Positions 2,029-19,724 of a stretch of DNA of 24,000 bases are shown in pieces. The position numbers and the translations under genes are program-made. Source of the DNA: Halostella salina (GTDB taxonomy: Archaea > Halobacteriota > Halobacteria > Halobacteriales > Natronoarchaeaceae); contig NZ_RCIH01000002.1 in the NCBI RefSeq assembly GCF_003675855.1, forward strand, positions 233,654 through 257,653. The letters are read 5' to 3'. Below the pieces are notes generated by a model. It was not told the DNA's origin and did no database searches. It saw only the letters and a list, made by a program, of their open reading frames with translations. Position 1 is the stretch's first letter, and every line of letters begins with the position of its first letter.

Positions 2029-3504
2029 TCAGTCCGCACCGGTCGCGCCGGCCTCGGCCTCCCGGGCGACCCGCCGCCACGCGCCGGACCAGAACCGGAC
2101 CGTGTTGACCGTCGCCCGGAGGTACATGTCGGCGAGGATGGCCCCGAACACGGCGGTGAGACCGAGCCCGAACCCGGGGTCGACCGTCACCCCGGCGACC
2201 GACACCGCCACGACGCCGGCCGGCAACGCCGTGAGCGCGACGGGGAGTTTGACCAGATACGTCCCCGCGACCGTGCCGTACAGCGGCCAGCGCGTGTCGC
2301 CCGCGCCGCGCAGGCCGCCCCGCATCGTCCGCGAGACGCTGAACGCGCCGACGCCGACGCCGAACATCCGGATGAAATCGACCGTCAGGTCGACGTGGTC
2401 CGTTCCGAAGGCGACGGCGATGGGGCGGGCCAGCGCGAAGATGACCGCCGCGATGAGCAGCTGGGTCGCCAGCGCGATCCGGAGGGTCTGCCAGCCGTAG
2501 GCGTCCGCTTCCTCCTCCTCGCCCGCGCCGAGGCTCTGCCCGACGAGCGTGCTGGAGGCGGTGGCGTAGCCCCACGCGGGCATCAGCGCGAGCAGCATGA
2601 CCCGGCGGCCGATGGCGTACGCGGCAAGCACCGGCGTCCCGAGCGCGCCGAGGATGAACAGGAACGGGAACCGCCCGAACGTCCGCGCGAGCCGGGTGCC
2701 CGCAAGCGGCGCGCCGACGCGGACGATCTCGCGGACGATCTCGCCGTCCCACTGCCGACCGCCGAGGCGGAGGCGCACCGGGAACCGGTCGGAGAGGAGC
2801 AAGGCGAGGAAGATGAGCGCCGCCGCGGTGTTCGCGACCGCCGTCCCCCACGCCGCGCCGGCGACGCCCAGTTCGGGGAACGGCCCGAGCCCGAAGATGA
2901 GCACCGCGTTCAGCCCGATGTTCGTCGGCAGGGTGACGAGGCGAACGTACATCGGCGTCCGCGTGTCGCCCGCACCGGCGAGCGCCCGGGCGGCGACGAG
3001 GCTCCAGAATCGAAACGCGACTGACAGCATCACGATCTTGAGGTAGACCGCGCCGAGCCGGACCGTCTCGGGGTCGTCGTTCAGCAGGTCGATGAGCGGT
3101 TCGGCGTACACCCAGCCGACGACGGTGATGGGGACCGAGATGGCCAGCGCGAGCCACAGCGACTGTTTGACGGCGAGGTCGGCCCGCACGTGGTCGTCGG
3201 CCCCTTTGAACCGGGAGACGACGCTGATGGTGCCGCTCGTCAGGGCGAGCGAGAGCCCGAATGGGATGAAGTAGTACTGGAAGCCGAGTTCGAGCGCCGC
3301 GACGGCGGTGTCGCCGACCGCGAGGCTCACCATGAAGAAGTCCGCGGTCCGCAGGAGCGTCCGCATCGCCCCGGTGACCATCACCGGCACCGCGAGGTCG
3401 AACGCCTCCGACCCCTTCTTCCGGTCGACCAGACCGAGGCGGGCCAGCGCCGCGGGGAACAGAAAGAGGAGGTCCCGGACGCGCCGTCGCGTGTCCTCCA
3501 GCAT
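2029..3504 (-). CDS. MATE family multidrug/oligosaccharide efflux transporter
   Basis: 491 aa with about 12 hydrophobic segments in a two-fold repeat architecture. The sequence has a typical MATE (NorM/DinF-like) character. ATG start. Confidence 0.8.
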   Translation of the reverse strand: MLEDTRRRVRDLLFLFPAALARLGLVDRKKGSEAFDLAVPVMVTGAMRTLLRTADFFMVSLAVGDTAVAALELGFQYYFIPFGLSLALTSGTISVVSRFKGADDHVRADLAVKQSLWLALAISVPITVVGWVYAEPLIDLLNDDPETVRLGAVYLKIVMLSVAFRFWSLVAARALAGAGDTRTPMYVRLVTLPTNIGLNAVLIFGLGPFPELGVAGAAWGTAVANTAAALIFLALLLSDRFPVRLRLGGRQWDGEIVREIVRVGAPLAGTRLARTFGRFPFLFILGALGTPVLAAYAIGRRVMLLALMPAWGYATASSTLVGQSLGAGEEEEADAYGWQTLRIALATQLLIAAVIFALARPIAVAFGTDHVDLTVDFIRMFGVGVGAFSVSRTMRGGLRGAGDTRWPLYGTVAGTYLVKLPVALTALPAGVVAVSVAGVTVDPGFGLGLTAVFGAILADMYLRATVNTVRFWSGAWRRVAREAEAGATGAD

Positions 3505-3650
3505 GCTCGCTGACGTTCGGAGCCGTCCGGGTTACGTCTTGCCAACGCGGAAACCCGGACCGTCGCGGAGCGGCGTCGGTTTCACACCCCGGTTTCGCGT
3601 AGAGATGGATCGAACGGTACCCGGGTCTGTCGAACGGTCGAAGCGGCTGT

Positions 3651-3670
3651 GGATGGGAAACGAAGGGGTG
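3651..3670 (+). promoter_or_regulatory. outlying origin recognition box (ORB-like), ggatgGGAAACGAAGGGGTG
   Basis: The 3' 13 nt 'GAAACGAAGGGGT' is identical to the ORBs at 6268, 6846, 6029(rc) and 8470(rc). It lies in the intergenic gap between oapC and the MATE gene. Confidence 0.65.
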
Positions 3671-3694
3671 CGCGGACGGGACGTGACGGTCCGG

Positions 3695-4465
3695 CTACGC
3701 CTCGTCGGACCGCCAGGTCTCCGGAACCTCGATGACGTAGCGGCCGTCCTCCTGCAGCGAGATGATGTACTCGTCGCGGTCGTACAGCTCCATCAGGTTG
3801 AGTTCGTACCGGCCGGGCTGGACGATCCTGATGCTCTCGAACTGTTCGTTTAGCTCCTCGCGGAGCTGGGACAGGTCCGGACGCTCCTCGTCCGGCGTGT
3901 CCGCGACGACCCCGTCCTCGGCCGCCGGTCGTTCGTCCACCGCCGGGCCGGGCGGCTCCTCTGGCAGTTCGTCGCTGGACACCACGTCGCTCCGGGCGTC
4001 GGCCTGCGCGTCGTCCTCGTCGGACGGGACGCCGGCCGCGCCGGCGGCGGACGGGGTCGACCCCCCGGCGTCCGGGTCGGGAGTGTCGGTCCCGGCAGGG
4101 TCCGGACGACCGCTGTCGGTCGCCGGGTCGGCAGCCGCGTCGCCTGCCGACTGTCCGGCCGACCCGTCGTCAGACCCGACCCAGTCCCGGACCGTTTCGC
4201 GTGCACGGTCGACCCGCCCGGTGACGCCGGCATCGGACCCCGAAGCCTTCGCGCCCGCGCCACCGCCGGCGGCGGGAGTCGGTCCGTCGTCGGCCGCGTC
4301 GCCGGCGGCCGGGCTCTCGGCGGTGCCCCCGTCGCCCCCCGCGTCGCCGTCGGAGCCGCTGGGGTCGAACTGGAACTTGTTGCCGCCGCAGTCCGGACAG
4401 CCCGACAGCATCTCCTTGGAGCCGTCGGCGAACATCCGGCCGCAGTTCGTACACTGGTGTGGCAT
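3695..4465 (-). CDS. oapC: zinc-ribbon protein of the origin-associated operon (OapC-like)
   Basis: N-terminal CxxC...CxxC ribbon (CTNCGRMF...CPDCGG), a long G/A/D/P low-complexity linker, and a conserved C-terminal domain (QPGRYELNLMELY...DGRYVIEV). Its ATG overlaps the oapB stop by 1 nt (TAATG). The symbol follows my recollection of the Haloferax volcanii oap genes. Confidence 0.8.
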   Translation of the reverse strand: MPHQCTNCGRMFADGSKEMLSGCPDCGGNKFQFDPSGSDGDAGGDGGTAESPAAGDAADDGPTPAAGGGAGAKASGSDAGVTGRVDRARETVRDWVGSDDGSAGQSAGDAAADPATDSGRPDPAGTDTPDPDAGGSTPSAAGAAGVPSDEDDAQADARSDVVSSDELPEEPPGPAVDERPAAEDGVVADTPDEERPDLSQLREELNEQFESIRIVQPGRYELNLMELYDRDEYIISLQEDGRYVIEVPETWRSDEA

Positions 4466-5780: not shown

Positions 5781-5801
5781 TCCAGTTGAAATGGAGGGGT
5801 G
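5781..5801 (+). promoter_or_regulatory. ORB, TCCAGTTGAAATGGAGGGGTG
   Basis: Matches the window consensus tCCAnnnGAAACGAAGGGGTG, with 'atgg' in place of 'acga'. Confidence 0.7.
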
Positions 5802-5846
5802 TCATTTTCAGTTGAGGTAGTCGCTATACGTTTGTATTCGAAGAAA

Positions 5847-5865
5847 CACCCCTAGTTCGCTTGGA
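5847..5865 (-). promoter_or_regulatory. degenerate ORB (rc TCCAAGCGAACTAGGGGTG)
   Basis: Inverted relative to ORB 5781. The pair flanks a 45-nt AT-rich spacer (5802-5846). Confidence 0.45.
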
Positions 5866-6028
5866 GTCGAAACGCCCGGGTGAGGATCGTTCAACGGTGG
5901 TCGAACGGTGATCGATGTAGTCGGGAAACCGACCGGACTGAATCACCCGGGAACAAACGGACAGCACAGTGGAACGAGAGGACTGCGTTGATGGTCACGT
6001 GATGAGGGTCCCCCACCCTTGACCCCCC

Positions 6029-6049
6029 CACCCCTTCGTTTCGGGTGGA
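6029..6049 (-). promoter_or_regulatory. ORB with G-string (rc TCCACCCGAAACGAAGGGGTG followed by GGGGGG)
   Basis: Exact GAAACGAAGGGGTG core on the minus strand, forming the left border of the AT-rich element. Confidence 0.85.
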
Positions 6050-6080
6050 ACGACGGACGGGTGGGGTGGGGGGAAGCCCG

Positions 6081-6210
6081 TTCTCTAGTGTCGCATGGTT
6101 TTATGTATAATGACCTGTAACCAGACCCGTAGTACAAGAACAACTATTTTTGTTGTTTGAATTCTTCGAAAGGATCGATTAGGATCCACTAGAGACTCGC
6201 TAGTAGGTTG
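6081..6210. other. AT-rich duplex unwinding element (DUE) candidate
   Basis: 47 of 70 nt are A/T in 6101-6170, within a window that is otherwise visibly GC-rich. The stretch is bracketed by inverted ORBs (6029 minus, 6268 plus) and by a 9-bp inverted repeat tctctagtg/cactagaga (6082-6090 and 6187-6195). Confidence 0.75.
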
Positions 6211-6267: not shown

Positions 6268-6288
6268 TCCAGTTGAAACGAAGGGGTG
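6268..6288 (+). promoter_or_regulatory. ORB with G-string, TCCAGTTGAAACGAAGGGGTG followed by GGGGTG
   Basis: Exact core, forming the right border of the AT-rich element. It is inverted relative to ORB 6029. Confidence 0.85.
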
Positions 6289-6845: not shown

Positions 6846-6866
6846 TCCAGATGAAACGAAGGGGTG
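6846..6866 (+). promoter_or_regulatory. ORB, TCCAGATGAAACGAAGGGGTG
   Basis: Exact core, ending 14 nt before the orc1 ATG. Confidence 0.85.
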
Positions 6867-6879
6867 AATCAACCAACGA

Positions 6880-8403
6880 ATGTCGGACGAGGACACGGGA
6901 CCCGAGCAAGCGGAGGGCGTGGAGGTAGACTCATCGCGGGACTTCGACGTGGAGCTGGACGACGTCGTCCTCGAGGACGAGGAGGAGGCGAATCAGGGCC
7001 TGTTCGATGACCTGCTGAGCGGCGAACCGATCTTCGAGAACAAGGAGGTGCTGCGCCCGTCGTACACGCCACACGAGCTCCCGCACCGCAAGGAGCAGAT
7101 CAACAAGATGGCGACGATCCTCGTCGCCGCGCTACGGGGCGAGACGCCGTCGAACATCCTCATCTACGGGAAGACGGGGACCGGCAAGACGGCGAGTGCG
7201 AAGTTCGTCAGCCAGGAACTGGAGAGCACGTCCCAGAAGTACCAGGTGCCCTGCGAGGTCGAGTACATCAACTGCGAGGTGACGGACACGCAGTACCGCG
7301 TGCTCGCACAGCTGGCGAACAAGTTCATCGAGGAGAACGAGCGGCTCATCGACGAGTGGCTCGACGACCTCCGGGACCTTCGGGAGGCGGCGTCCGACGA
7401 CGCGGCCGAAGCTCCGACCGTGCTGGCCGAGGCCGAGCCGATCGCGGGCACCGAGTTCGACTCCGTCGAGGCGATCGACGAGCGCATCGCCGAACTGGAG
7501 GCCGACCGCGAGGAGTTCGAGACCGTCCCGATGACGGGGTGGCCGACGGACCGCGTGTACAGCGTGTTCTTCGAGGCGGTCGACTATCACGAGCGCGTGG
7601 TCGTCATCATGCTGGACGAGATCGACAAGCTCGTCGAGAAGTCCGGCGACGACACGCTGTACAACCTCTCCCGGATGAACTCGGAACTGGACAACTCGCG
7701 CGTGTCGATCATGGGGATCTCGAACGACCTGAAGTTCACCGATTTCCTCGACCCCCGCGTCAAGTCCAGCCTCGGCGAGGAGGAGATCGTCTTCCCCCCG
7801 TACGACGCCAACCAGCTCCGGGACATCCTCCAGCACCGCTCGGACGTGGCGTTCAAGGCCGACGCGCTGACCGGCGACGTGATCCCGCTGTGTGCGGCCT
7901 TCGCCGCGCAGGAGCACGGCGACGCCCGCCGCGCGCTCGACCTGCTCCGGACCGCCGGCGAACTCGCGGAGCGCGACCAGTCGGAGGTCGTCGACGAGGA
8001 CCACGTCCGGAAGGCACAGGACAAGATCGAACTCGACCGCGTCGTCGAGGTCGTTCGCACCCTCCCGACGCAGTCGAAGATCGTCCTCTTCTCGATCATC
8101 CTGCTGGAGAAAAACGGCGTCCACAACATCAACACCGGCGAGGTGTACAACATCTACAAGCGCCTCTGCGAGGAGATAGACGCCGACGTGCTCACCCAGC
8201 GCCGGGTGACCGACCTCATCAGCGAACTCGACATGCTGGGCATCGTCAACGCCGTCGTCGTCTCGAAGGGCCGCTACGGCCGGACGAAGGAGATCAGCCT
8301 CTCGGTCCCCATCGACGAGACCGAGGCCGTCCTCCTCAGCGACTCCCGGCTGGGCGACATCGAGGACGTCCAGCCGTTCGTCCAGGCGCGGTTCGACAAC
8401 TGA
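6880..8403 (+). CDS. orc1: Orc1/Cdc6 replication initiator
   Basis: AAA+ Walker A 'GKTGTGKT', Walker B 'IMLDEID', and a C-terminal winged-helix region. It has an acidic N-terminus and an acidic insertion of about 70 aa. Its position next to the ORB cluster fits the call. Confidence 0.95.
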   Translation: MSDEDTGPEQAEGVEVDSSRDFDVELDDVVLEDEEEANQGLFDDLLSGEPIFENKEVLRPSYTPHELPHRKEQINKMATILVAALRGETPSNILIYGKTGTGKTASAKFVSQELESTSQKYQVPCEVEYINCEVTDTQYRVLAQLANKFIEENERLIDEWLDDLRDLREAASDDAAEAPTVLAEAEPIAGTEFDSVEAIDERIAELEADREEFETVPMTGWPTDRVYSVFFEAVDYHERVVVIMLDEIDKLVEKSGDDTLYNLSRMNSELDNSRVSIMGISNDLKFTDFLDPRVKSSLGEEEIVFPPYDANQLRDILQHRSDVAFKADALTGDVIPLCAAFAAQEHGDARRALDLLRTAGELAERDQSEVVDEDHVRKAQDKIELDRVVEVVRTLPTQSKIVLFSIILLEKNGVHNINTGEVYNIYKRLCEEIDADVLTQRRVTDLISELDMLGIVNAVVVSKGRYGRTKEISLSVPIDETEAVLLSDSRLGDIEDVQPFVQARFDN

Positions 8404-8469
8404 CCCGGCCACGTCAACCCATCACCCGGGAACCGGACCCGCTGCCGGCTCCGTGAAACGGTTTCCCAC

Positions 8470-8490
8470 GACCCCTTCGTTTCTCGTGGA
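8470..8490 (-). promoter_or_regulatory. ORB downstream of orc1 (rc TCCACGAGAAACGAAGGGGTC)
   Basis: Exact GAAACGAAGGGGT core on the minus strand, in the 128-nt gap between convergent orc1 and the signal peptidase gene. Confidence 0.8.
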
Positions 8491-9626: not shown

Positions 9627-11336
9627 GTGCCACTGGAGGCCCCCGCCCGGATCGTCAGCGAACTCACGAGCCGGGGGTACAACGCCGACCGCGAGGCGGT
9701 GACGCTCATCGCTTCCGCGGATGATCCGGCCCGCGCGCTGGAGCGCGTCGTCGAGGCCGCACCGGAGGGTGCGCTCCGACTCTCGGTCGACCACGTCCGC
9801 GCGGTGCTTGACGCCGACGACGCGGCCGGCGACCCCGCGACGATGAGCGAGTCCGCCTCCACCCGAGCGGGTGCGGTCGATGCACCGGCCGACGCCGGTA
9901 GCGACGCTGCCGATGCTGCCACCGCTACCGACGCTGGGGGCGACGCGCCTGACCACGCGGCCACCCCGGATGCCGCGACCACGGCGGACACAGGTGGAGC
10001 GCGTTCGGCCACCGCGGACAGCCAAGACCCCTCTACTTCGACTGCAGACCCGGACGCTTCGACCGATCGATCGTCGAAAAACTCTCCATCTGAAACAACG
10101 GTATCGGCCGACCGGAGCACCGACCAGTCGCTCCGCTCGGTCGACATCGCGAACGACATCACCGGTCGGAGCACGGGGACGGGCGCGTACGAGGACTTCG
10201 TCGCCGTGTTCCGGGACCGCTACGAGCGCCTGGGCGACAAACTCAGATCCAGGGTAAACCACCGCCCGGCGGAGGCGATCCAGTCGATGCCCGGCGGGAG
10301 CGAGGCGTCGATGGTCGGGATGGTCAGCGACATCCGGTCGACGGCCAGCGGCCACTGGCTCGTCGAACTGGAGGACCCGACGGGGACGTTCCCCTGCCTC
10401 GTAATGAAGGACCGCGACATCGCGGCGCTGGTCGAGGAGCTGCTCCACGACGAGATCATCGCCGTCGAGGGATCGCTGGCGGACGACGGCGGGATCCTCT
10501 TCGTCGATGCGATGCACTTCCCGGACGTGCCGCGGACGTACTCGCCGAACACGGCCGACCGCCACGTCCAGGCCGCGCTCATCAGCGACATCCACGTCGG
10601 CAGTCAGGAGTTCATGGCCGACGCGTGGTCGCGCTTCGCCGACTGGCTCCACACGCCCGAGGCCGAGGCCATCGAGTACCTGCTCATCGCGGGGGACATG
10701 GTCGAGGGCGTCGGCGTCTACCCGGACCAGGACGAGGAACTCGACATCGTCGACATCTACGACCAGTACCGGCAGTTCTCGGAACACCTGAAGGAGGTGC
10801 CCGGCGACATCGAGATCGTGATGATCCCCGGGAACCACGACGCCGTCCGCCTCGCCGAACCCCAGCCGGCGTTCGACGAGGAACTGCGGAACATCATGTC
10901 GGCGCACGACGCCCGGATCACGGGCAACCCCTCGACCGTCACGCTGGAGGGCGTCTCGATCCTCATGTACCACGGCGTCTCGCTGGACGAGGTGATCGCC
11001 GAACTTCCGGAGGAGAAGGCCAGCTACGACGACCCCCAGAAAGCGATGCACCACCTCCTGAAGAAGCGCCACGTCGCCCCGCAGTACGGCGGCCACCTCC
11101 GCCTCGCGCCCGAGGAGAAGGATTACCTCACCATCGACGAGGTGCCGGACATCTTCCACACCGGCCACGTCCACAAACTCGGCGTCGGCAAGTACCACAA
11201 CGTCCTCTCGATCAATTCGGGCTGCTGGCAGGAACAGACCGCCTTCCAGCAGTCGGTCAACATCGACCCCGACGCCGGGTTCGCGCCGGTCGTCGACCTC
11301 GACACGCTGGAGCCGACGATCCGTAAGTTCCACTAA
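9627..11336 (+). CDS. polD1: DNA polymerase II (PolD) small subunit DP1
   Basis: Calcineurin-type phosphoesterase motifs 'ISDIHVGS', 'AGDMVEG', 'PGNHD' and 'TGHVH'. The N-terminal 'MPLEAPARIVSELTSRGYNADREAV' looks like the haloarchaeal DP1 N-terminal domain. GTG start. A D/A/T-rich low-complexity insert spans roughly aa 70-170. Confidence 0.93.
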   Translation: MPLEAPARIVSELTSRGYNADREAVTLIASADDPARALERVVEAAPEGALRLSVDHVRAVLDADDAAGDPATMSESASTRAGAVDAPADAGSDAADAATATDAGGDAPDHAATPDAATTADTGGARSATADSQDPSTSTADPDASTDRSSKNSPSETTVSADRSTDQSLRSVDIANDITGRSTGTGAYEDFVAVFRDRYERLGDKLRSRVNHRPAEAIQSMPGGSEASMVGMVSDIRSTASGHWLVELEDPTGTFPCLVMKDRDIAALVEELLHDEIIAVEGSLADDGGILFVDAMHFPDVPRTYSPNTADRHVQAALISDIHVGSQEFMADAWSRFADWLHTPEAEAIEYLLIAGDMVEGVGVYPDQDEELDIVDIYDQYRQFSEHLKEVPGDIEIVMIPGNHDAVRLAEPQPAFDEELRNIMSAHDARITGNPSTVTLEGVSILMYHGVSLDEVIAELPEEKASYDDPQKAMHHLLKKRHVAPQYGGHLRLAPEEKDYLTIDEVPDIFHTGHVHKLGVGKYHNVLSINSGCWQEQTAFQQSVNIDPDAGFAPVVDLDTLEPTIRKFH

Positions 11337-11552
11337 GAAAGCCCTTGCTCGGCCTTGGCAGGCCTCGCTGCGCCCTTTCAATGTCCGCCGCCAGAATCGC
11401 TGCGCGATTCTCGCTAAGGCCCGCCAGTTTGCGCGAGCGCCAGCGGTCGCTGGCGCACGCTTCGAGTGCCTGCCCTTCCCCGTCCGCTGGCGGCGCTCGA
11501 CGCGGTCTCGCGCACGCCAGCGCGGCCGGAAGGCTGTGTCGATGCTGTCACG
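11337..11552 (+). repeat. copy A of a roughly 215-nt structured intergenic element
   Basis: nt 11337-11440 are identical to 14522-14625 (104/104). Similarity continues to about 11552/14736. Contains hairpins at 11393-11411, 11437-11456 and 11485-11522. Confidence 0.85.
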
Positions 11553-11578
11553 ACCACGCCTGGAGGGTCAACCCCGAG

Positions 11579-12004
11579 CTACGGCTCCATCCGGTACTTC
11601 ACGGTCGGCGTGCCGTCGAACCGCGGTCCGGGACCGGCCTCGGCGAAGCCGACGCTCTCGGCCGCGTCGGCGACGTGGGGAACGGAGTCCGGCGCGATCA
11701 GTTCGACCGGCATCCCCTCGCGCTCGGCGAAGCGGACCGGTTCGCCGAGCAACTGCTCGCAGGCGTCCGCGGTCCCATCGACCTGCGTCACGTGGACGCA
11801 GTTCTCGCGCGCATCGAAGCTGACGAAGCCCAGCAGGCCCGGGTCCTGCTCCTCGGCGTCCGCGTTCGGGTCCGTCTCTTCCTCCTCGGACTCGGCGACG
11901 CGGACCGTCCGGTCGTGGACTAGGTTGCGCATCACGTCCGTCGGGGCGTCGGCGATCGCGGCCATGTCGCCGGCGTCCGCCTCAACGGCGTCCCGTATCC
12001 TCAT
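11579..12004 (-). CDS. GNAT family N-acetyltransferase
   Basis: About 141 aa and acidic, with a C-terminal 'AESVGFAEAG' matching the acetyl-CoA-binding end of GNATs. ATG at 12002-12004 lies about 29 nt downstream of the TATA-like 'atttat' (minus strand, 12031-12036). The GTG at 12022 is the less likely start. Confidence 0.75.
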   Translation of the reverse strand: MRIRDAVEADAGDMAAIADAPTDVMRNLVHDRTVRVAESEEEETDPNADAEEQDPGLLGFVSFDARENCVHVTQVDGTADACEQLLGEPVRFAEREGMPVELIAPDSVPHVADAAESVGFAEAGPGPRFDGTPTVKYRMEP

Positions 12005-12100
12005 CGTGTCCACGGTAGTCACCCACGCACATAAATCCGCGGCGTGCGTGGGATGATCACAAGCGTCACACTTTCAATCTCGGGGGCGCTACGTCGACCC

Positions 12101-13237
12101 ATGACCGACGGTCCGGAGGGACACCAGCGCTGTGACTTCTGCCGGTTGCCCCACGCCGTCGACCCGGTCGAACTCGAACATCAGGGGACCACCTACGAGT
12201 TCTGTTCGTCCGCCTGCCGGCGGGCGATGCAGGAGTCGGACCGGGTGTTCACCGAGTACCACGGACATCGCCGGTTCGTGCCCGGCGTCGCCGCGCTCGA
12301 CGACTCCCTCCCCGAGGGGTTGCCGCGCAACTCCTTCGTCCTGCTCGCGGGGCAGGCCGGAACCCGAACCGAGGCACTCCACGCCGAACTCGTCTGGCGG
12401 GCGCTCAGACGGGGCGAACCGGCGGTCGTCGTCACCTTTCAGGAGCCCCCGACGTCCGTCGTCGAGACGTTCCTCACGATGGAGTGGAACGTCCTTCCCT
12501 ACCTCGAATCCGGCCAGCTCCGGATCCTCGACTGCTTTACCTACCGCGTCAGCGACCGCGACCGGATGCACGACCGGATGAGCGCGTGGAACCGCCATCT
12601 CCACCGTCTCACCGAGCCGGCGACCGAAACCGTCCGCGACCCCAGCGACATGAGCGAACTGGCGAACAAGCTGGACAACTGCCTCGAAGCCGAGTCGATG
12701 GTCGACACCGGCGTCGTGCTGATCGACTCGCTGACGGAACTCGGGACGCTCGTCCAGCCGGTGCAGGCGTACGACTTCGTCAAGGACGTGCGCGCCGACG
12801 TCTGCAAGGGCCGGTTCGTCCCCGTGTTCGCCGGGGCGACGTTCAGCGGCGAGAACGGCTCGTTCCCGCACGACCTGGACTACCTCGTCGACGGGATCGT
12901 CGACCTCGAACTCAACGGCGGGATCGTCGAGGACACGCTCCTCCGCCGGGTCCGCATCCGGAAGATGTCCGGCGTGCTCACCATCTCCGAGTGGACCGCG
13001 TTCGAGTACACGAGCGACACCGGACTCGTCCCGTTCGACCCCGACGAGGAGATGGCGGGGTCGGACCCCGCCGCTCCCGACGACCACCCCGACGACAGCC
13101 CGCCACCTGACGAGGAGTCACCGACCGAGTCCGGACCGACTCAAGAGACAGACAGAGCGGAGACGTCGACGCCCGACCCCACCGACGCCGACGCGCCGAA
13201 GGCCGACGCGGACGCCGCCCCGTCCGGCGACGGGTAG
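12101..13237 (+). CDS. TRASH zinc-finger fused to a KaiC/RecA-like domain lacking the P-loop lysine
   Basis: C-x2-C-x20-C-x3-C (CDFC...CSSAC) is a TRASH/YHS-type finger. 'LLAGQAGTRTE' sits where GPPGTGKT is expected. Walker-B-like 'VVLIDSLTEL', a KaiC-like 'RRVRIRKMSG', and an acidic P/D/E/T tail are present. ATG at 12101 lies about 27 nt after 'ctttcaatc' (12070-12078). Confidence 0.85.
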   Translation: MTDGPEGHQRCDFCRLPHAVDPVELEHQGTTYEFCSSACRRAMQESDRVFTEYHGHRRFVPGVAALDDSLPEGLPRNSFVLLAGQAGTRTEALHAELVWRALRRGEPAVVVTFQEPPTSVVETFLTMEWNVLPYLESGQLRILDCFTYRVSDRDRMHDRMSAWNRHLHRLTEPATETVRDPSDMSELANKLDNCLEAESMVDTGVVLIDSLTELGTLVQPVQAYDFVKDVRADVCKGRFVPVFAGATFSGENGSFPHDLDYLVDGIVDLELNGGIVEDTLLRRVRIRKMSGVLTISEWTAFEYTSDTGLVPFDPDEEMAGSDPAAPDDHPDDSPPPDEESPTESGPTQETDRAETSTPDPTDADAPKADADAAPSGDG

Positions 13238-13341
13238 TCCCGGATCTTCCCTCCAAAATTTCCGGAGATGGACACAGTTATGAGCGCGGTACGGCTACGA
13301 CATCCCATGACCGTCGTTGCCACGCGCCCGCGGGTGGTCGG

Positions 13342-14520
13342 ATGCGAGTAGTCGCCAAGTTCGGGGGGACCAGCCTTGGGAGCGGCGAGCGCGTCGACCG
13401 CGCCGCCGACTCCATCGCCACCGCCGTCGAGGAGGGCCACGAGATCGCCGTCGTCGCCAGCGCCATGGGGTCGACGACGGACGAACTGCTCGACGAGATC
13501 ACCTTCGAGACGGAGGACGAGGACCGCGCCCAGATCGTCAGCATGGGCGAGCGCACCAGCGTCCGCATGCTCAAGGCCGCCCTCGCAGCCCGCGGGATCG
13601 ATGCGATCTTCCTCGAACCGGGCAGCGAACAGTGGCCGGTCATCACCGACGCCGCCGGCGAGGTCGACGTCGAAGAGACCAAGCGCCGCGCCGGCGAACT
13701 CGCGGCCCAGCTCGACGGCGTCGTCCCCGTGATCACCGGCTTCCTCGCCGAGGACGGCGACGGCAACGTCACCACGCTCGGCCGCGGTGGAAGCGACACC
13801 ACTGCCGTCATGCTCGGCCGCTACATGGACGCCGACGAGGTCGTCATCGTCACCGACGTCGAGGGCGTCATGACCGGCGACCCCCGCGTCGTCGAGGGCG
13901 CGCGCAACGTCGGCGAGATCACCGTCGACGAACTGCGCAACCTCTCGTTCCGTGGCGCGGAAGTGGTCGCGCCCAGCGCCCTCTCGTACAAGGCCGGCAA
14001 CATGAGCGTCCGCGTCGTCCACTACCAGCACGGCGACCTGCTCACCGGCGGCACCCGGATCGAGGGCGAGTTCCGGAGCCTCGTCGACATGCGCGAGGGA
14101 TCGCTGGCCTGCATCACCGTCGCGGGCCGCGCCATCCGCAACAGCCCCGGCATCCTGCGTGACCTGACGACCGCGCTCGGCGACGCCGAGGTCAACGTCG
14201 ACGCTATCGCCAGCGGGATGGACTCCGTGACGTTCTACGTCGACGAGTCCGAGTCCGAGGCCGCCGAAACGGTGCTCCACCGCGAGGTCGTCGACCAGGA
14301 ACCGCTCTCCAGCGTCACCGTCGAGGAGGGGCTGGCCGTCATCCGCGTCACCGGCGGCGAACTGCCGAACCGGCCCGGCGTGATGCAGGAGATCGTCCAG
14401 CCGATGGCCGCGGCCGGCATCAACATCCACGACCTCATCACCAGCGCCACCTCCGTCGCCGCCTTCGTCGACTGGGACGACCGCGAGCAGGCGCTGGAGA
14501 TCATGCAGAACCGCTTCTAG
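13342..14520 (+). CDS. lysC: aspartate kinase
   Basis: N-terminal 'KFGGTSLG', amino-acid-kinase fold motifs, and C-terminal tandem ACT-like regions. 392 aa. Confidence 0.92.
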   Translation: MRVVAKFGGTSLGSGERVDRAADSIATAVEEGHEIAVVASAMGSTTDELLDEITFETEDEDRAQIVSMGERTSVRMLKAALAARGIDAIFLEPGSEQWPVITDAAGEVDVEETKRRAGELAAQLDGVVPVITGFLAEDGDGNVTTLGRGGSDTTAVMLGRYMDADEVVIVTDVEGVMTGDPRVVEGARNVGEITVDELRNLSFRGAEVVAPSALSYKAGNMSVRVVHYQHGDLLTGGTRIEGEFRSLVDMREGSLACITVAGRAIRNSPGILRDLTTALGDAEVNVDAIASGMDSVTFYVDESESEAAETVLHREVVDQEPLSSVTVEEGLAVIRVTGGELPNRPGVMQEIVQPMAAAGINIHDLITSATSVAAFVDWDDREQALEIMQNRF

Positions 14521-14521
14521 G

Positions 14522-14736
14522 GAAAGCCCTTGCTCGGCCTTGGCAGGCCTCGCTGCGCCCTTTCAATGTCCGCCGCCAGAATCGCTGCGCGATTCTCGCT
14601 AAGGCCCGCCAGTTTGCGCGAGCGCTGACGGTCGTCAGCGCACGCTTCGAGTGCCTGCCCTCCCCCGTCCGCTGGCGGGGCTCACTACCGTTCGCCCACG
14701 CCAGCGTGGCCGGTGGGGGACATCAAACCTGTCACG
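14522..14736 (+). repeat. copy B of the roughly 215-nt structured intergenic element
   Basis: See copy A. Hairpins are at 14578-14596, 14622-14641 and 14670-14706, and the last two carry compensatory substitutions relative to copy A. Confidence 0.85.
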
Positions 14737-14866
14737 GATCCCGCATCCGGTGGTCGGATCGATCCGGTTCGGAGACTCTCTCTCGCTGGACGATCGCCGA
14801 GTCGACCGCCGTGGTACCGCGACCCTCGGAACTGTTATACGTAAACCCGGCGTACAATTGATTGCA

Positions 14867-15061
14867 ATGGCAAACGGAACTGTTGATTTCTTCAACAACA
14901 CTGGCGGCTACGGTTTCATTTCCACCGAGGACGCGGACGACGACGTTTTCTTCCACATGGAGGACGTTGGCGGTGCGGACCTCGAAGAAGGACAGGACAT
15001 CGAGTTCGACATCGAGCAGGCCCCCAAGGGTCCGCGCGCGACGAACGTCGTTCGCAACTGA
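14867..15061 (+). CDS. csp: cold-shock domain protein
   Basis: 64 aa. 'GTVDFFNNTGGYGFI' contains the RNP-1-like motif and 'VFFHMEDV' the RNP-2-like motif. ATG start. TATA-like 'gttatac' lies about 33 nt upstream. Confidence 0.93.
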   Translation: MANGTVDFFNNTGGYGFISTEDADDDVFFHMEDVGGADLEEGQDIEFDIEQAPKGPRATNVVRN

Positions 15062-15089
15062 GTCTCTCTCGACACCACTAACTCGCGAT

Positions 15090-15094
15090 TTTTC
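15090..15094 (+). terminator. oligo-T tract downstream of csp
   Basis: A T5 run 29 nt after the csp stop, followed by hairpin cgaccg-acag-cggtcg (15104-15119). Archaeal termination commonly uses oligo-T. Confidence 0.4.
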
Positions 15095-15173
15095 GGGTGC
15101 TACGACCGACAGCGGTCGCGTCGCGCTGCCGACATCCCAACGAACTATTTTCTTCGACCCGTAGCACGCCGCC

Positions 15174-15578
15174 ATGGATCGGCTGACGACGGTCGACACC
15201 GTACACGAGGAGGGGTCGTGGCTCTTTACGATCCGCGACGAGTACGACGAACTCGACGAGGTCCTGTTGCTCCCCTGCGAGGACGGCGTCGAGGCGTGGA
15301 TCAACCGCTGCACCCACGAGGCACAGCGCTTCGACCGCGGCTTCGGCGCGGCGGTCCGGGACGGACAGCTCGTCTGCCCCAAGCACGGGTCGATGTTCGA
15401 CACCTGCTCGGGCGACTGCGACAACGGCGACGCCGCCGGCACGACGCTGCCCGGCGTCGACGTGACGGTCAACCGCGGCGACGTGTACCTGATCGACGAC
15501 GACGTGGCGTTCCAGCACGAGGGCGGCATCGACGACGGCGACGACGGCCCGAGTTCGACCTCCCACATCGGGCTCTGA
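15174..15578 (+). CDS. Rieske [2Fe-2S] domain protein
   Basis: 'CTHEAQRF' (CxH) and 'CPKHGSMF' (CxxH) ligand boxes. ATG lies about 26 nt downstream of TATA-like 'actattttc' (15144-15152), consistent with a leaderless mRNA. Confidence 0.88.
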   Translation: MDRLTTVDTVHEEGSWLFTIRDEYDELDEVLLLPCEDGVEAWINRCTHEAQRFDRGFGAAVRDGQLVCPKHGSMFDTCSGDCDNGDAAGTTLPGVDVTVNRGDVYLIDDDVAFQHEGGIDDGDDGPSSTSHIGL

Positions 15579-19651: not shown

Positions 19652-19724
19652 AGTCCCGTGGGGTAGCGGCCAATCCTGAAGCCTTCTGGGGGCTTCGACA
19701 CAGGTTCGAATCCTGTCGGGACTA
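19652..19724 (+). tRNA. tRNA-Gln (anticodon CUG)
   Basis: Manual cloverleaf, 73 nt. Acceptor agtcccg/cgggact. D arm gggt-agcggccaa-tcct. Anticodon arm aagcc-ttCTGgg-ggctt, with U33 and a purine at 37. Variable loop cgac. T arm acagg-ttcgaat-cctgt. Discriminator a. No encoded CCA. Confidence 0.9.

Follow-up and report, generated by a model that had tools for sequence, protein, structure and literature searches.

A 24,000 nt stretch of the Halostella salina genome (assembly GCF_003675855.1, contig NZ_RCIH01000002.1, positions 233,654-257,653; hereafter the window) carries two hairpin-rich elements of ~215 nt, arranged as direct repeats on the + strand with a spacing of 3185 nt. These elements, copies A and B, are very probably members of a family of interspersed, mosaic palindromic repeats located at the 3′ ends of genes. 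The family is non-coding, apparently undescribed, and has so far been found only in the Halostella lineage. As a whole, the observations are probably best explained by an archaeal repeat resembling repetitive extragenic palindromes (REPs) and bacterial interspersed mosaic elements (BIMEs), and situated in 3′ untranslated regions (3′ UTRs); that it also acts within the 3′ UTR is a more tentative proposal.

Two copies of the repeat in the window

Copies A and B are the only long repeat found within the window (repeat family D1). Copy A starts 1 nt past the TAA (11334-11336) of the gene for the small subunit of DNA polymerase II (PolD), and occupies most of the gap before a convergent gene, the stop of which is at 11579. 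Copy B starts 2 nt past the TAG (14518-14520) of the aspartate kinase gene, and is followed ~130 nt downstream by a cold-shock-protein gene (ATG 14867). The layout of the element is leader-H0-L1-H1-L2-H2-L3-H3, comprising four hairpins (H0 to H3) and three linkers (L1 to L3), with a tail of GCGGCC (CGGCC after H3 of copy A). The coordinates of these parts are given in Table 1.

Alignment of the two copies confirmed the starting point of an earlier, sequence-only reading, which had described two look-alike copies that share 104 identical nt (11337-11440 = 14522-14625) and then differ by compensated changes in their stems. Similarity extends as far as CTGTCACG (11545-11552 / 14729-14736). Hairpin H1 (AGAATCGC-TGC-GCGATTCT) is the same in both copies. 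Hairpin H2 is GCGCCAGC-GGTC-GCTGGCGC in copy A and GCGCTGAC-GGTC-GTCAGCGC in copy B, with three adjacent base pairs altered on both arms; all six changes are transitions and all are compensated. The outer stem of H3 (CGCTGGCG/CGCCAGCG) is retained while one inner pair is changed from C-G to G-C, and its loop diverges freely (13 nt in A, 12 nt in B). Nearly all of the differences are in stems or a loop, as had been reported, but they number roughly 17 through H3 by our own count, rather than 14. A single unpaired, uncompensated substitution precedes H3 (T/C at 11478, in the linker), and a further C/T difference lies immediately 3′ of the outer stem of H3.

Across the family, the linker motifs are AAAGCCCTTG (leader), GCGCCCTTTCAATGTCCGCC (L1), ...CCGCCAGTTTGCGCGAG (L2) and CACGCTTCGAGYGCCTGCCCTYCCCCG (L3). 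There is no complementarity between AAAGCCCTTG at the 5′ end and GCGGCC(R) at the 3′ end, i.e., the element has no terminal inverted repeats. The lower stem of H2 is conserved (GCG-A-G/C-A-CGC) and contains an A.A mismatch; above it are a 7-bp stem that varies and the loop GGTC. Hairpin content varies, with some copies missing certain hairpins and others carrying additional two-hairpin modules. The minimum free energy fold of a single sequence contains a long-range helix between the 3′ arm of H0 and L3, but this is not kept in other copies and the local H0 hairpin is preferred.

Copies behind stop codons in the Halostella lineage

The syntenic locus of relatives was retrieved via aspartate kinase, which in the window is 100% identical to that of H. 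salina. Both orthologous sites, behind the genes for the PolD small subunit (site A) and aspartate kinase (site B), are occupied in every Halostella-lineage genome examined, i.e., a JGI contig (99% aspartate kinase identity), H. litorea, Halostella sp. JP-L12, two H. pelagica strains and the metagenome-assembled genome (MAG) QS_9_68_17. Gene order is the same in Natronoarchaeum philippinense, but its intergenic gaps are 75 and 32 nt and do not contain the element. The family is old, since its orthologous sites are occupied across the genus and vacant in Natronoarchaeum.

A scan of one genome per species for the pattern of the most conserved linker, L3 (ACGCTYYGAGYGCCTGCCYYYCCCCG), gave matches at 6 places in H. 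pelagica and 7 in the MAG, and none in the rest of the collection. An nhmmer profile search of the retrieved loci located further copies behind orc1/cdc6 and a malate dehydrogenase gene, and the malate dehydrogenase and ferredoxin sites were seen again in two metagenome contigs. There are at least 12 independent sites across several genomes, and at least eight copies each in H. pelagica and the related MAG. The sequence-only reading had proposed a new twin element: its novelty appears to stand, in that no published description was found in the literature searched, but the element is an interspersed, multi-copy repeat and not a twin. Rfam, a comparison suggested earlier, gave no match at gathering scores for both copies and three related loci, and only chance-level matches at E up to 10 (E ≥ 0.4). 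Searches of PLSDB plasmids and INPHARED phages by blastn gave no match, nor did scans of viral contigs with the H1 and L3 patterns, and a metagenome scan with a 20-mer of L1 gave 7 matches, all in unrelated coding sequence.

All copies are intergenic. A co-oriented gene precedes the element at 10 of the 12 independent sites, and the leader begins at -1 to +3 nt relative to its stop codon. Five of the upstream genes are supported by Pfam (PolD small subunit, aspartate kinase, Orc1/Cdc6, malate dehydrogenase and a ferredoxin-type gene), and the others were named by reading their translations only (two PhoU-like, one F420-reductase-like, one desuccinylase-like and one of unknown function). The ends of the upstream proteins are the same as in Natronoarchaeum, and the upstream flanks share nothing but the stop codon (TAA, TAG or TGA), of which the A or GA often doubles as the first base of the element, e.g., TGAAAGCCC. 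With a leader of 9 nt, the first stem starts 8-12 nt past the stop codon, within the distance (<16 nt) over which terminating ribosomes are influenced by REPs in E. coli (PMC12306157). A DNA target 'TRA' was rejected as the sole cause of this placement, as the window has 614 such trinucleotides versus roughly 20 genes.

Copies are unevenly distributed. Five of the eight known H. pelagica copies are within 25 kb beside the origin (CP040678.1, 3.152-3.177 Mb), with the remainder at 0.40, 1.12 and 1.71 Mb, and in MAG scaffolds 118 and 56 the copies are paired, 13 kb apart. This clustering suggests local spread, although it could also mean an origin-related bias. The orc1/cdc6 site has a full copy in H. 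pelagica and JP-L12, just TGA|CCCGTCCGCGCGGCCACC in H. litorea, and a possible remnant in H. salina; the two remnants look like the near-complete deletion of a third local copy. A search for a clean empty site, made at the sites of cdc6 and of malate dehydrogenase/ferredoxin, turned up nothing beyond degenerate copies or remnants.

Conserved linkers and variable, paired stems

Mean pairwise identities among 13 canonical copies are 0.81-0.96 for the linkers and ends, 0.85-0.89 for the hairpin loops, 0.58-0.78 for the stem arms and 0.37 for the six bases outside the element. At site B, H. salina and H. pelagica agree at ~93% of linker positions (a count made by eye) and at 71% of codon position 3 of the adjacent gene; the linkers appear to be under constraint, changing more slowly than synonymous sites. 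The stems are variable but remain paired. H2 occurs as 13 distinct stems with 98.1% standard pairs, six of its eight pairs have changed on both sides, and its pairing score was matched by none of 500 shuffles. Compensatory changes were found by RNAalifold in 24 of 44 consensus pairs. The view that the hairpins are kept as pairings and not as sequence is borne out throughout the family. Widespread uncompensated stem changes, which the sequence-only reading had named as evidence that would speak against it, are not seen in the additional copies.

Strong covariation in H0, H1, H2 and H3 could reflect selection on a structured RNA, either a domain of the 3′ UTR or an RNA processed from it, in which stems co-vary to maintain folding. 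Conservation of the loops and slowly changing linkers, the fixed orientation relative to the upstream gene and the six transitions in H2 agree with this, as does the folding of both strands of the element, which is more stable than that of shuffled controls (z = -2.6 to -4.1). There is also a possible extension of the H3 base and a candidate closing helix, P1, between GCCCTT of the leader and GAGTGC of L3 (GAGYGC in the family); P1 and the linkers are invariant, however, and hence lack covariation support. Other features of the hairpins argue the other way. The 77 distinct hairpins contain 657 Watson-Crick pairs as opposed to 3 G.T and 8 A.C mismatches, and when the few G.U cells of the H3 base are added, the G.T and A.C types are about equal, each <2%. 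An RNA evolving via G.U intermediates should show many more of them, and on one strand only, so their scarcity counts against RNA-level selection. Several copies have inverted loops (TGC/GCA in H1, TGGC/GCCA in H0), GC-to-CG swaps are no rarer than GC-to-AU swaps within this one genus, 3-base loops predominate, and GNRA or UNCG loops are absent. A wobble-asymmetry test for the transcribed strand gave no signal either way. Given the flipped loops and the lack of strand bias in wobble mismatches, nothing proves RNA-level selection, and the earlier conclusion of selection on a folded molecule is not supported as far as an RNA is concerned. No promoter is evident, and hairpins are gained and lost between strains. 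RNA-level selection on a structured RNA is considered unlikely.

These hairpin traits are properties of DNA palindromes and would fit template-switch repair together with small inversions, although they are compatible with RNA function as well. The palindromes may be kept perfect by selection for hairpin formation, aided by hairpin-templated (template-switch) repair, a process that would also account for whole-loop inversions and the lack of G.U intermediates.

Proposed exchange of modules between copies

Identical stem variants are common to non-orthologous sites and to different species. The TCGCGGC stem is present at H. litorea B, JGI B, H. pelagica F and MAG F, the CCTCCGC stem at JGI A and MAG G, and the CGCTGAC stem of H. 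salina B recurs at H. pelagica H. Between close relatives, whole stems are replaced and linkers are unaltered. The JGI contig and H. litorea carry different H0 stems at site A, whereas copies A and B of H. salina are the same over 104 nt; among these three genomes, the neighbouring gene has diverged by 11-15% at its third codon positions.

Gene conversion, by which modules pass from one copy to another, is the simplest reading, and the stretch of 104 identical nt is best taken for a recent conversion tract. Because stem variants recur at non-orthologous copies, the 'compensatory' differences between A and B in H2 and H3 are most simply seen as alternative variants from an old repertoire, and not as the in-place co-evolution that had been proposed. 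A single process, module exchange, would then produce both the identical bases and the paired differences that follow them. This provides a caution for genome scans, as 'compensatory' differences between paralogues can arise by swapping of pre-existing palindromic modules, without RNA co-evolution.

A proposed repeat of 3′ UTRs and the alternatives

A sigma-70 promoter scan, of limited relevance in archaea, found no promoter. As none is seen and copies start at the stop codon, each copy would form the 3′ UTR in the transcript of the gene upstream, making it a 3′-UTR or extragenic repeat of the REP/BIME kind and not a discrete RNA gene. By analogy with REPs and BIMEs, the stable stack of hairpins could define or protect the mRNA 3′ end and insulate neighbouring genes, and the first helix would be close enough to the stop codon to be opened by the terminating ribosome or to hinder it. 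The likely role would be mRNA 3′-end formation or protection, with a possible coupling to translation termination. L1 includes a T-run that begins 8 nt after H0; in H. salina it is no longer than T3, and in some relatives it is T4-T5.

Several points weigh against this interpretation. Two copies (H. pelagica site D, MAG site E) are between divergent genes, with no stop codon before them. A stabiliser function alone does not account for a placement as precise as that observed. A scan for GC-rich hairpins followed by T-runs (11000-15200) found no intrinsic-terminator-like sites in the window copies; like the promoter scan, it is of limited relevance in archaea. Palindrome sequences are not conserved and linkers are, opposite to the situation in REPs. 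Some copies are decaying (JP-L12 site B, H. pelagica site B), which would fit a selfish element equally well, and copies per genome are a lower bound, those of H. salina having been counted within the window only.

One alternative is a non-autonomous transposon of the IS200/IS605 kind, known in haloarchaea as palindrome-associated transposable elements (PATEs). The repeat would move as single-stranded DNA, be recognised via H0 and H3, and insert 3′ of a stop-like target. Its lack of terminal inverted repeats, the palindromes close to both ends (~10 nt away on the 5′ side, a few nt on the 3′ side), its heterogeneity, internal 'core' deletions and local clustering near oriC all recall PATEs, as does the insertion at a fixed point of L1 of a ~60-120-nt element with inverted ends (see below), reminiscent of SMR-A repeats (PMC3119063). 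No target-site duplication was seen, the 3′ boundary being known only to a few bases and no clean empty site having been found in a close relative. However, H0 and H3 do not resemble each other and vary greatly from copy to copy, and a Y1 transposase that recognises a specific sequence would not accept this. The 5′ stretch before the first palindrome is highly conserved, whereas it is highly variable in PATEs (PMC3119063), and beyond the T-R-R of the stop codon there is no conserved targeting oligonucleotide of 4-6 nt. Stop-like trinucleotides (TAA/TAG/TGA) outnumber the real stop codons of the window ~28-fold, entire copies are kept at orthologous sites across the genus, and haloarchaeal plasmids, phages and viral contigs gave no match. 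A PATE-like origin is likewise considered unlikely. Nor did a known insertion sequence (IS) or MITE (a miniature transposable element with inverted repeats), possibilities considered in the sequence-only reading, match the repeat.

The tight spacing could be taken further, with the repeat as a mobile, structured 3′-UTR cassette that is installed or selected at stop codons with single-nucleotide precision. A ribosome terminating at the stop would open the first helices, P1 and H0, 3-12 nt further on, and the fold would report translation of the upstream open reading frame (ORF) and set the fate of the mRNA. It would represent a new class of archaeal RNA and the first archaeal repeat with a reading-frame-dependent placement, but we regard it as a long shot.

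Less probable still is a chromosomal element acting as DNA, in which the linkers and cruciform-prone palindromes bind a replication or chromosome-structure protein. Bacterial BIMEs bind gyrase and IHF, and such a role would explain why, in H. pelagica and the MAG, copies cluster next to oriC/cdc6. The strictly palindromic DNA with flipped loops and mismatches that carry no strand signal, and the conservation of double-stranded linkers, also speak for it. A strict tie to stop codons and gene orientation would be unexpected for a replication or nucleoid site, however; other copies are far from the origin, and local spread can explain the clustering.

The remaining two explanations are excluded. 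A purely local duplication with gene conversion and no wider family would suit two similarly oriented copies 3.2 kb apart, and the 104-nt identity does behave like a conversion tract as the sequence-only reading had allowed, but matches elsewhere in H. pelagica and the MAG, some of them megabases away on the H. pelagica chromosome, show that the family is not limited to two copies. A small protein-coding gene or a C-terminal read-through extension might be suggested by the ORF opened by an ATG in L1 and a 47-aa ORF on the minus strand, but the alignments exclude it: hairpin lengths differ among copies by non-multiples of three, the variable spacing from the stop codon keeps no frame, and the ATG, as stated correctly before, gives a 20-aa peptide in copy B and a run-on ORF in copy A, with no frame in common.

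Neighbouring features

The features of the window and of related loci are listed in Table 1.

Table 1. Coordinates of the repeat copies, their parts and nearby features (window positions, unless a locus is named).
Feature	Position	Strand	Remarks
Copy A of repeat	11337..11552	+	nhmmer E = 2.6e-55
Copy A, 5′ leader AAAGCCCTT	11338..11346	+	96% pairwise identity
Copy A, H0 GCTCGGCCT-TGGC-AGGCCTCGC	11347..11368	+	stem variable in family, loop TGGC conserved
Copy A, linker L1 TGCGCCCTTTCAATGTCCGCC	11369..11389	+	conserved; target (ATGT|) of nested mini-element in relatives
Copy A, H1 GCCAGAATCGC-TGC-GCGATTCTCGC	11390..11414	+	one of three family stem types
Copy A, linker L2 TAAGGCCCGCCAGTTTGC	11415..11432	+	
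Copy A, H2	11433..11460	+	upper stem CGCCAGC, loop GGTC
Copy A, linker L3 CACGCTTCGAGTGCCTGCCCTTCCCCGTC	11456..11484	+	among most conserved segments; served as search pattern
Copy A, H3 CGCTGGCG...CGCCAGCG	11485..11527	+	inner stem GCGC/GCGC, bulged A, variable loop
Copy B of repeat	14522..14737	+	nhmmer E = 1.2e-53
Copy B, H2	14618..14645	+	upper stem CGCTGAC/GTCAGCG, variant recurring in H. pelagica site H
Copy B, H3	14670..14711	+	inner stem GGGC/GCCC; loop TCACTACCGTTC with recurrent TCAC...GTTC motif
Possible remnant of third copy, TGA|CCCGGCCAC	8401..8415	+	behind Orc1/Cdc6 stop; tentative
orc1/cdc6 site, full copies (H. pelagica and JP-L12)	L010 996-1286; L012 669-906		
orc1/cdc6 site, H. 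litorea remnant	L008 5085-5105		
TCCAnnnGAAACGAAGGGGT(GGGG) repeats	3650-3669, 5781-5800, 6268-6287, 6846-6865	+	sequence match
TCCAnnnGAAACGAAGGGGT(GGGG) repeats	6030-6049, 8471-8490	-	sequence match
orc1/cdc6 gene	6868-8403		
tRNA gene	19652-19724	+	sole Rfam match in window
Nested mini-element	L011 ~620-740; L023 ~2840-2965		
Nested mini-element	L026	-	
Nested mini-element	L027	-	shorter form
Second shared sequence, ~120 nt (H. pelagica)	L024 ~3530-3700		no Rfam match
Second shared sequence, ~120 nt (H. pelagica)	L016	-	
Small ORF, ~40 aa	L019 1056-1178		equivalent in L027 and L028

The twin copies are 3-6 kb to the right of a putative replication origin. Six copies of TCCAnnnGAAACGAAGGGGT(GGGG) are found in the window, versus 0.04 expected by chance; they resemble origin recognition boxes and lie on both sides of a stretch of low GC content (5800-6200, GC 0.52) immediately upstream of orc1/cdc6. 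This region is most likely the chromosomal replication origin, oriC.

In relatives, L1 is the insertion point of a nested mini-element, always at ATGT|. This has 11-bp inverted ends (GCTRAAAAACG...CGTTTTTCAGC) with A5/T5-flanked GC hairpins inside that look like bidirectional terminators. It is ~120 nt long in most copies and ~60 nt in locus L027, and is present in one H. pelagica strain and not in the other. A loop motif, TCAC-N(2-5)-GTTC(GC), recurs in hairpins with unrelated stems (e.g., window 14682-14695), and was seen in H3 of many copies, in H1 of H. pelagica site D and in an optional GAGCCTTCGCTCACTTCGTTCGCGAAGACGCC module.

Two other sequences accompany the repeat. A second shared sequence of ~120 nt adjoins its 3′ end at two unrelated H. 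pelagica sites; it has a TATA-like box (GGTTTATAAG...GGCGCGAGGGCGGACGAGGCGGGTG...CGTCTGTTCG), and may be a small RNA gene or another repeat. A conserved small ORF (MPNNAETHITEWAELIGDSVPD...) with its own AT-rich upstream region sits between tail-to-tail copies of the repeat behind the ferredoxin and malate dehydrogenase genes.

Comparison with known repeats

Much is known about interspersed palindromic repeats of bacteria, but there are hardly any descriptions from archaea. The Halostella family is unusual in three respects: linkers are conserved while palindromes are free to change yet remain perfect, the inverse of the usual rule; copies are placed within a few nucleotides behind the stops of unrelated core genes; and a smaller, nested repeat specifically targets the larger one. 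The family offers a test case for how hairpins persist and diversify, by selection on RNA or single-stranded DNA as opposed to hairpin-templated repair, and for how a repeat finds, or is retained at, stop codons. It also raises the question of whether haloarchaea, which are reported to lack an exosome, shape their mRNA 3′ ends with stacks of hairpins.

The closest resemblance is to REPs and BIMEs, for which mRNA 3′-end protection and transcription attenuation have been proposed as roles. Like them, the Halostella repeats are extragenic, occur in many copies at the 3′ ends of genes, and combine GC-rich palindromes and conserved linker motifs into mosaics. Many REPs are within about 15-20 nt of a stop codon, and those near stop codons can stall ribosomes and lower translation (PMC12306157). 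The differences are that in REPs the short, imperfect palindrome keeps its sequence among copies and has a conserved tetranucleotide at its base, whereas Halostella stems are hypervariable between conserved linkers; that the Halostella unit has four distinct hairpins in one fixed order and orientation; that the spacing from the stop codon is much tighter; and that the host is archaeal. REPs flank a cognate RAYT (Y1 HUH transposase) gene; for the Halostella repeat, the annotated genes of loci L008-L013 were covered, and no transposase domain was found among them.

The PATEs of Haloquadratum walsbyi are likewise free of a transposase and of terminal inverted repeats, with near-terminal palindromes, heterogeneous copies and internal deletions, and they receive short inverted-end elements at a fixed place (SMR-A, about 110 bp) (PMC3119063). 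PATEs also lack target duplications, and none was seen in the Halostella copies. PATE palindromes are, however, alike and similar to those of the IS605 type, whereas Halostella palindromes differ from copy to copy, and in PATEs a targeting oligonucleotide precedes a variable terminal stretch where the Halostella repeat has a stop codon before a conserved one (PMC3119063). No parent transposon is known for the Halostella element. MITEs are defined by terminal inverted repeats and target-site duplications, and here inverted ends occur in the nested mini-element only.

Integron attC sites, which work as folded single-stranded DNA, are similar in that structure and not sequence is conserved and in their fixed orientation directly after the stop of the preceding ORF. 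The Halostella element has no R/L core sites, integrase or cassette array, its flanking genes are core, syntenic housekeeping genes, and with four hairpins and conserved linkers it is much longer. Neisseria NIMEs and Correia elements and Rhizobium RIMEs are also lineage-restricted, intergenic repeats of 100-200 nt built from palindromes, but they have terminal inverted repeats and/or conserved palindromes; to our knowledge, none has been reported to abut stop codons so precisely, and none is archaeal. The Halostella family therefore shares the extragenic, mosaic, 3′-end character of REPs and BIMEs, and has neither the sequence conservation of REP palindromes nor the end structures of MITEs and PATEs.

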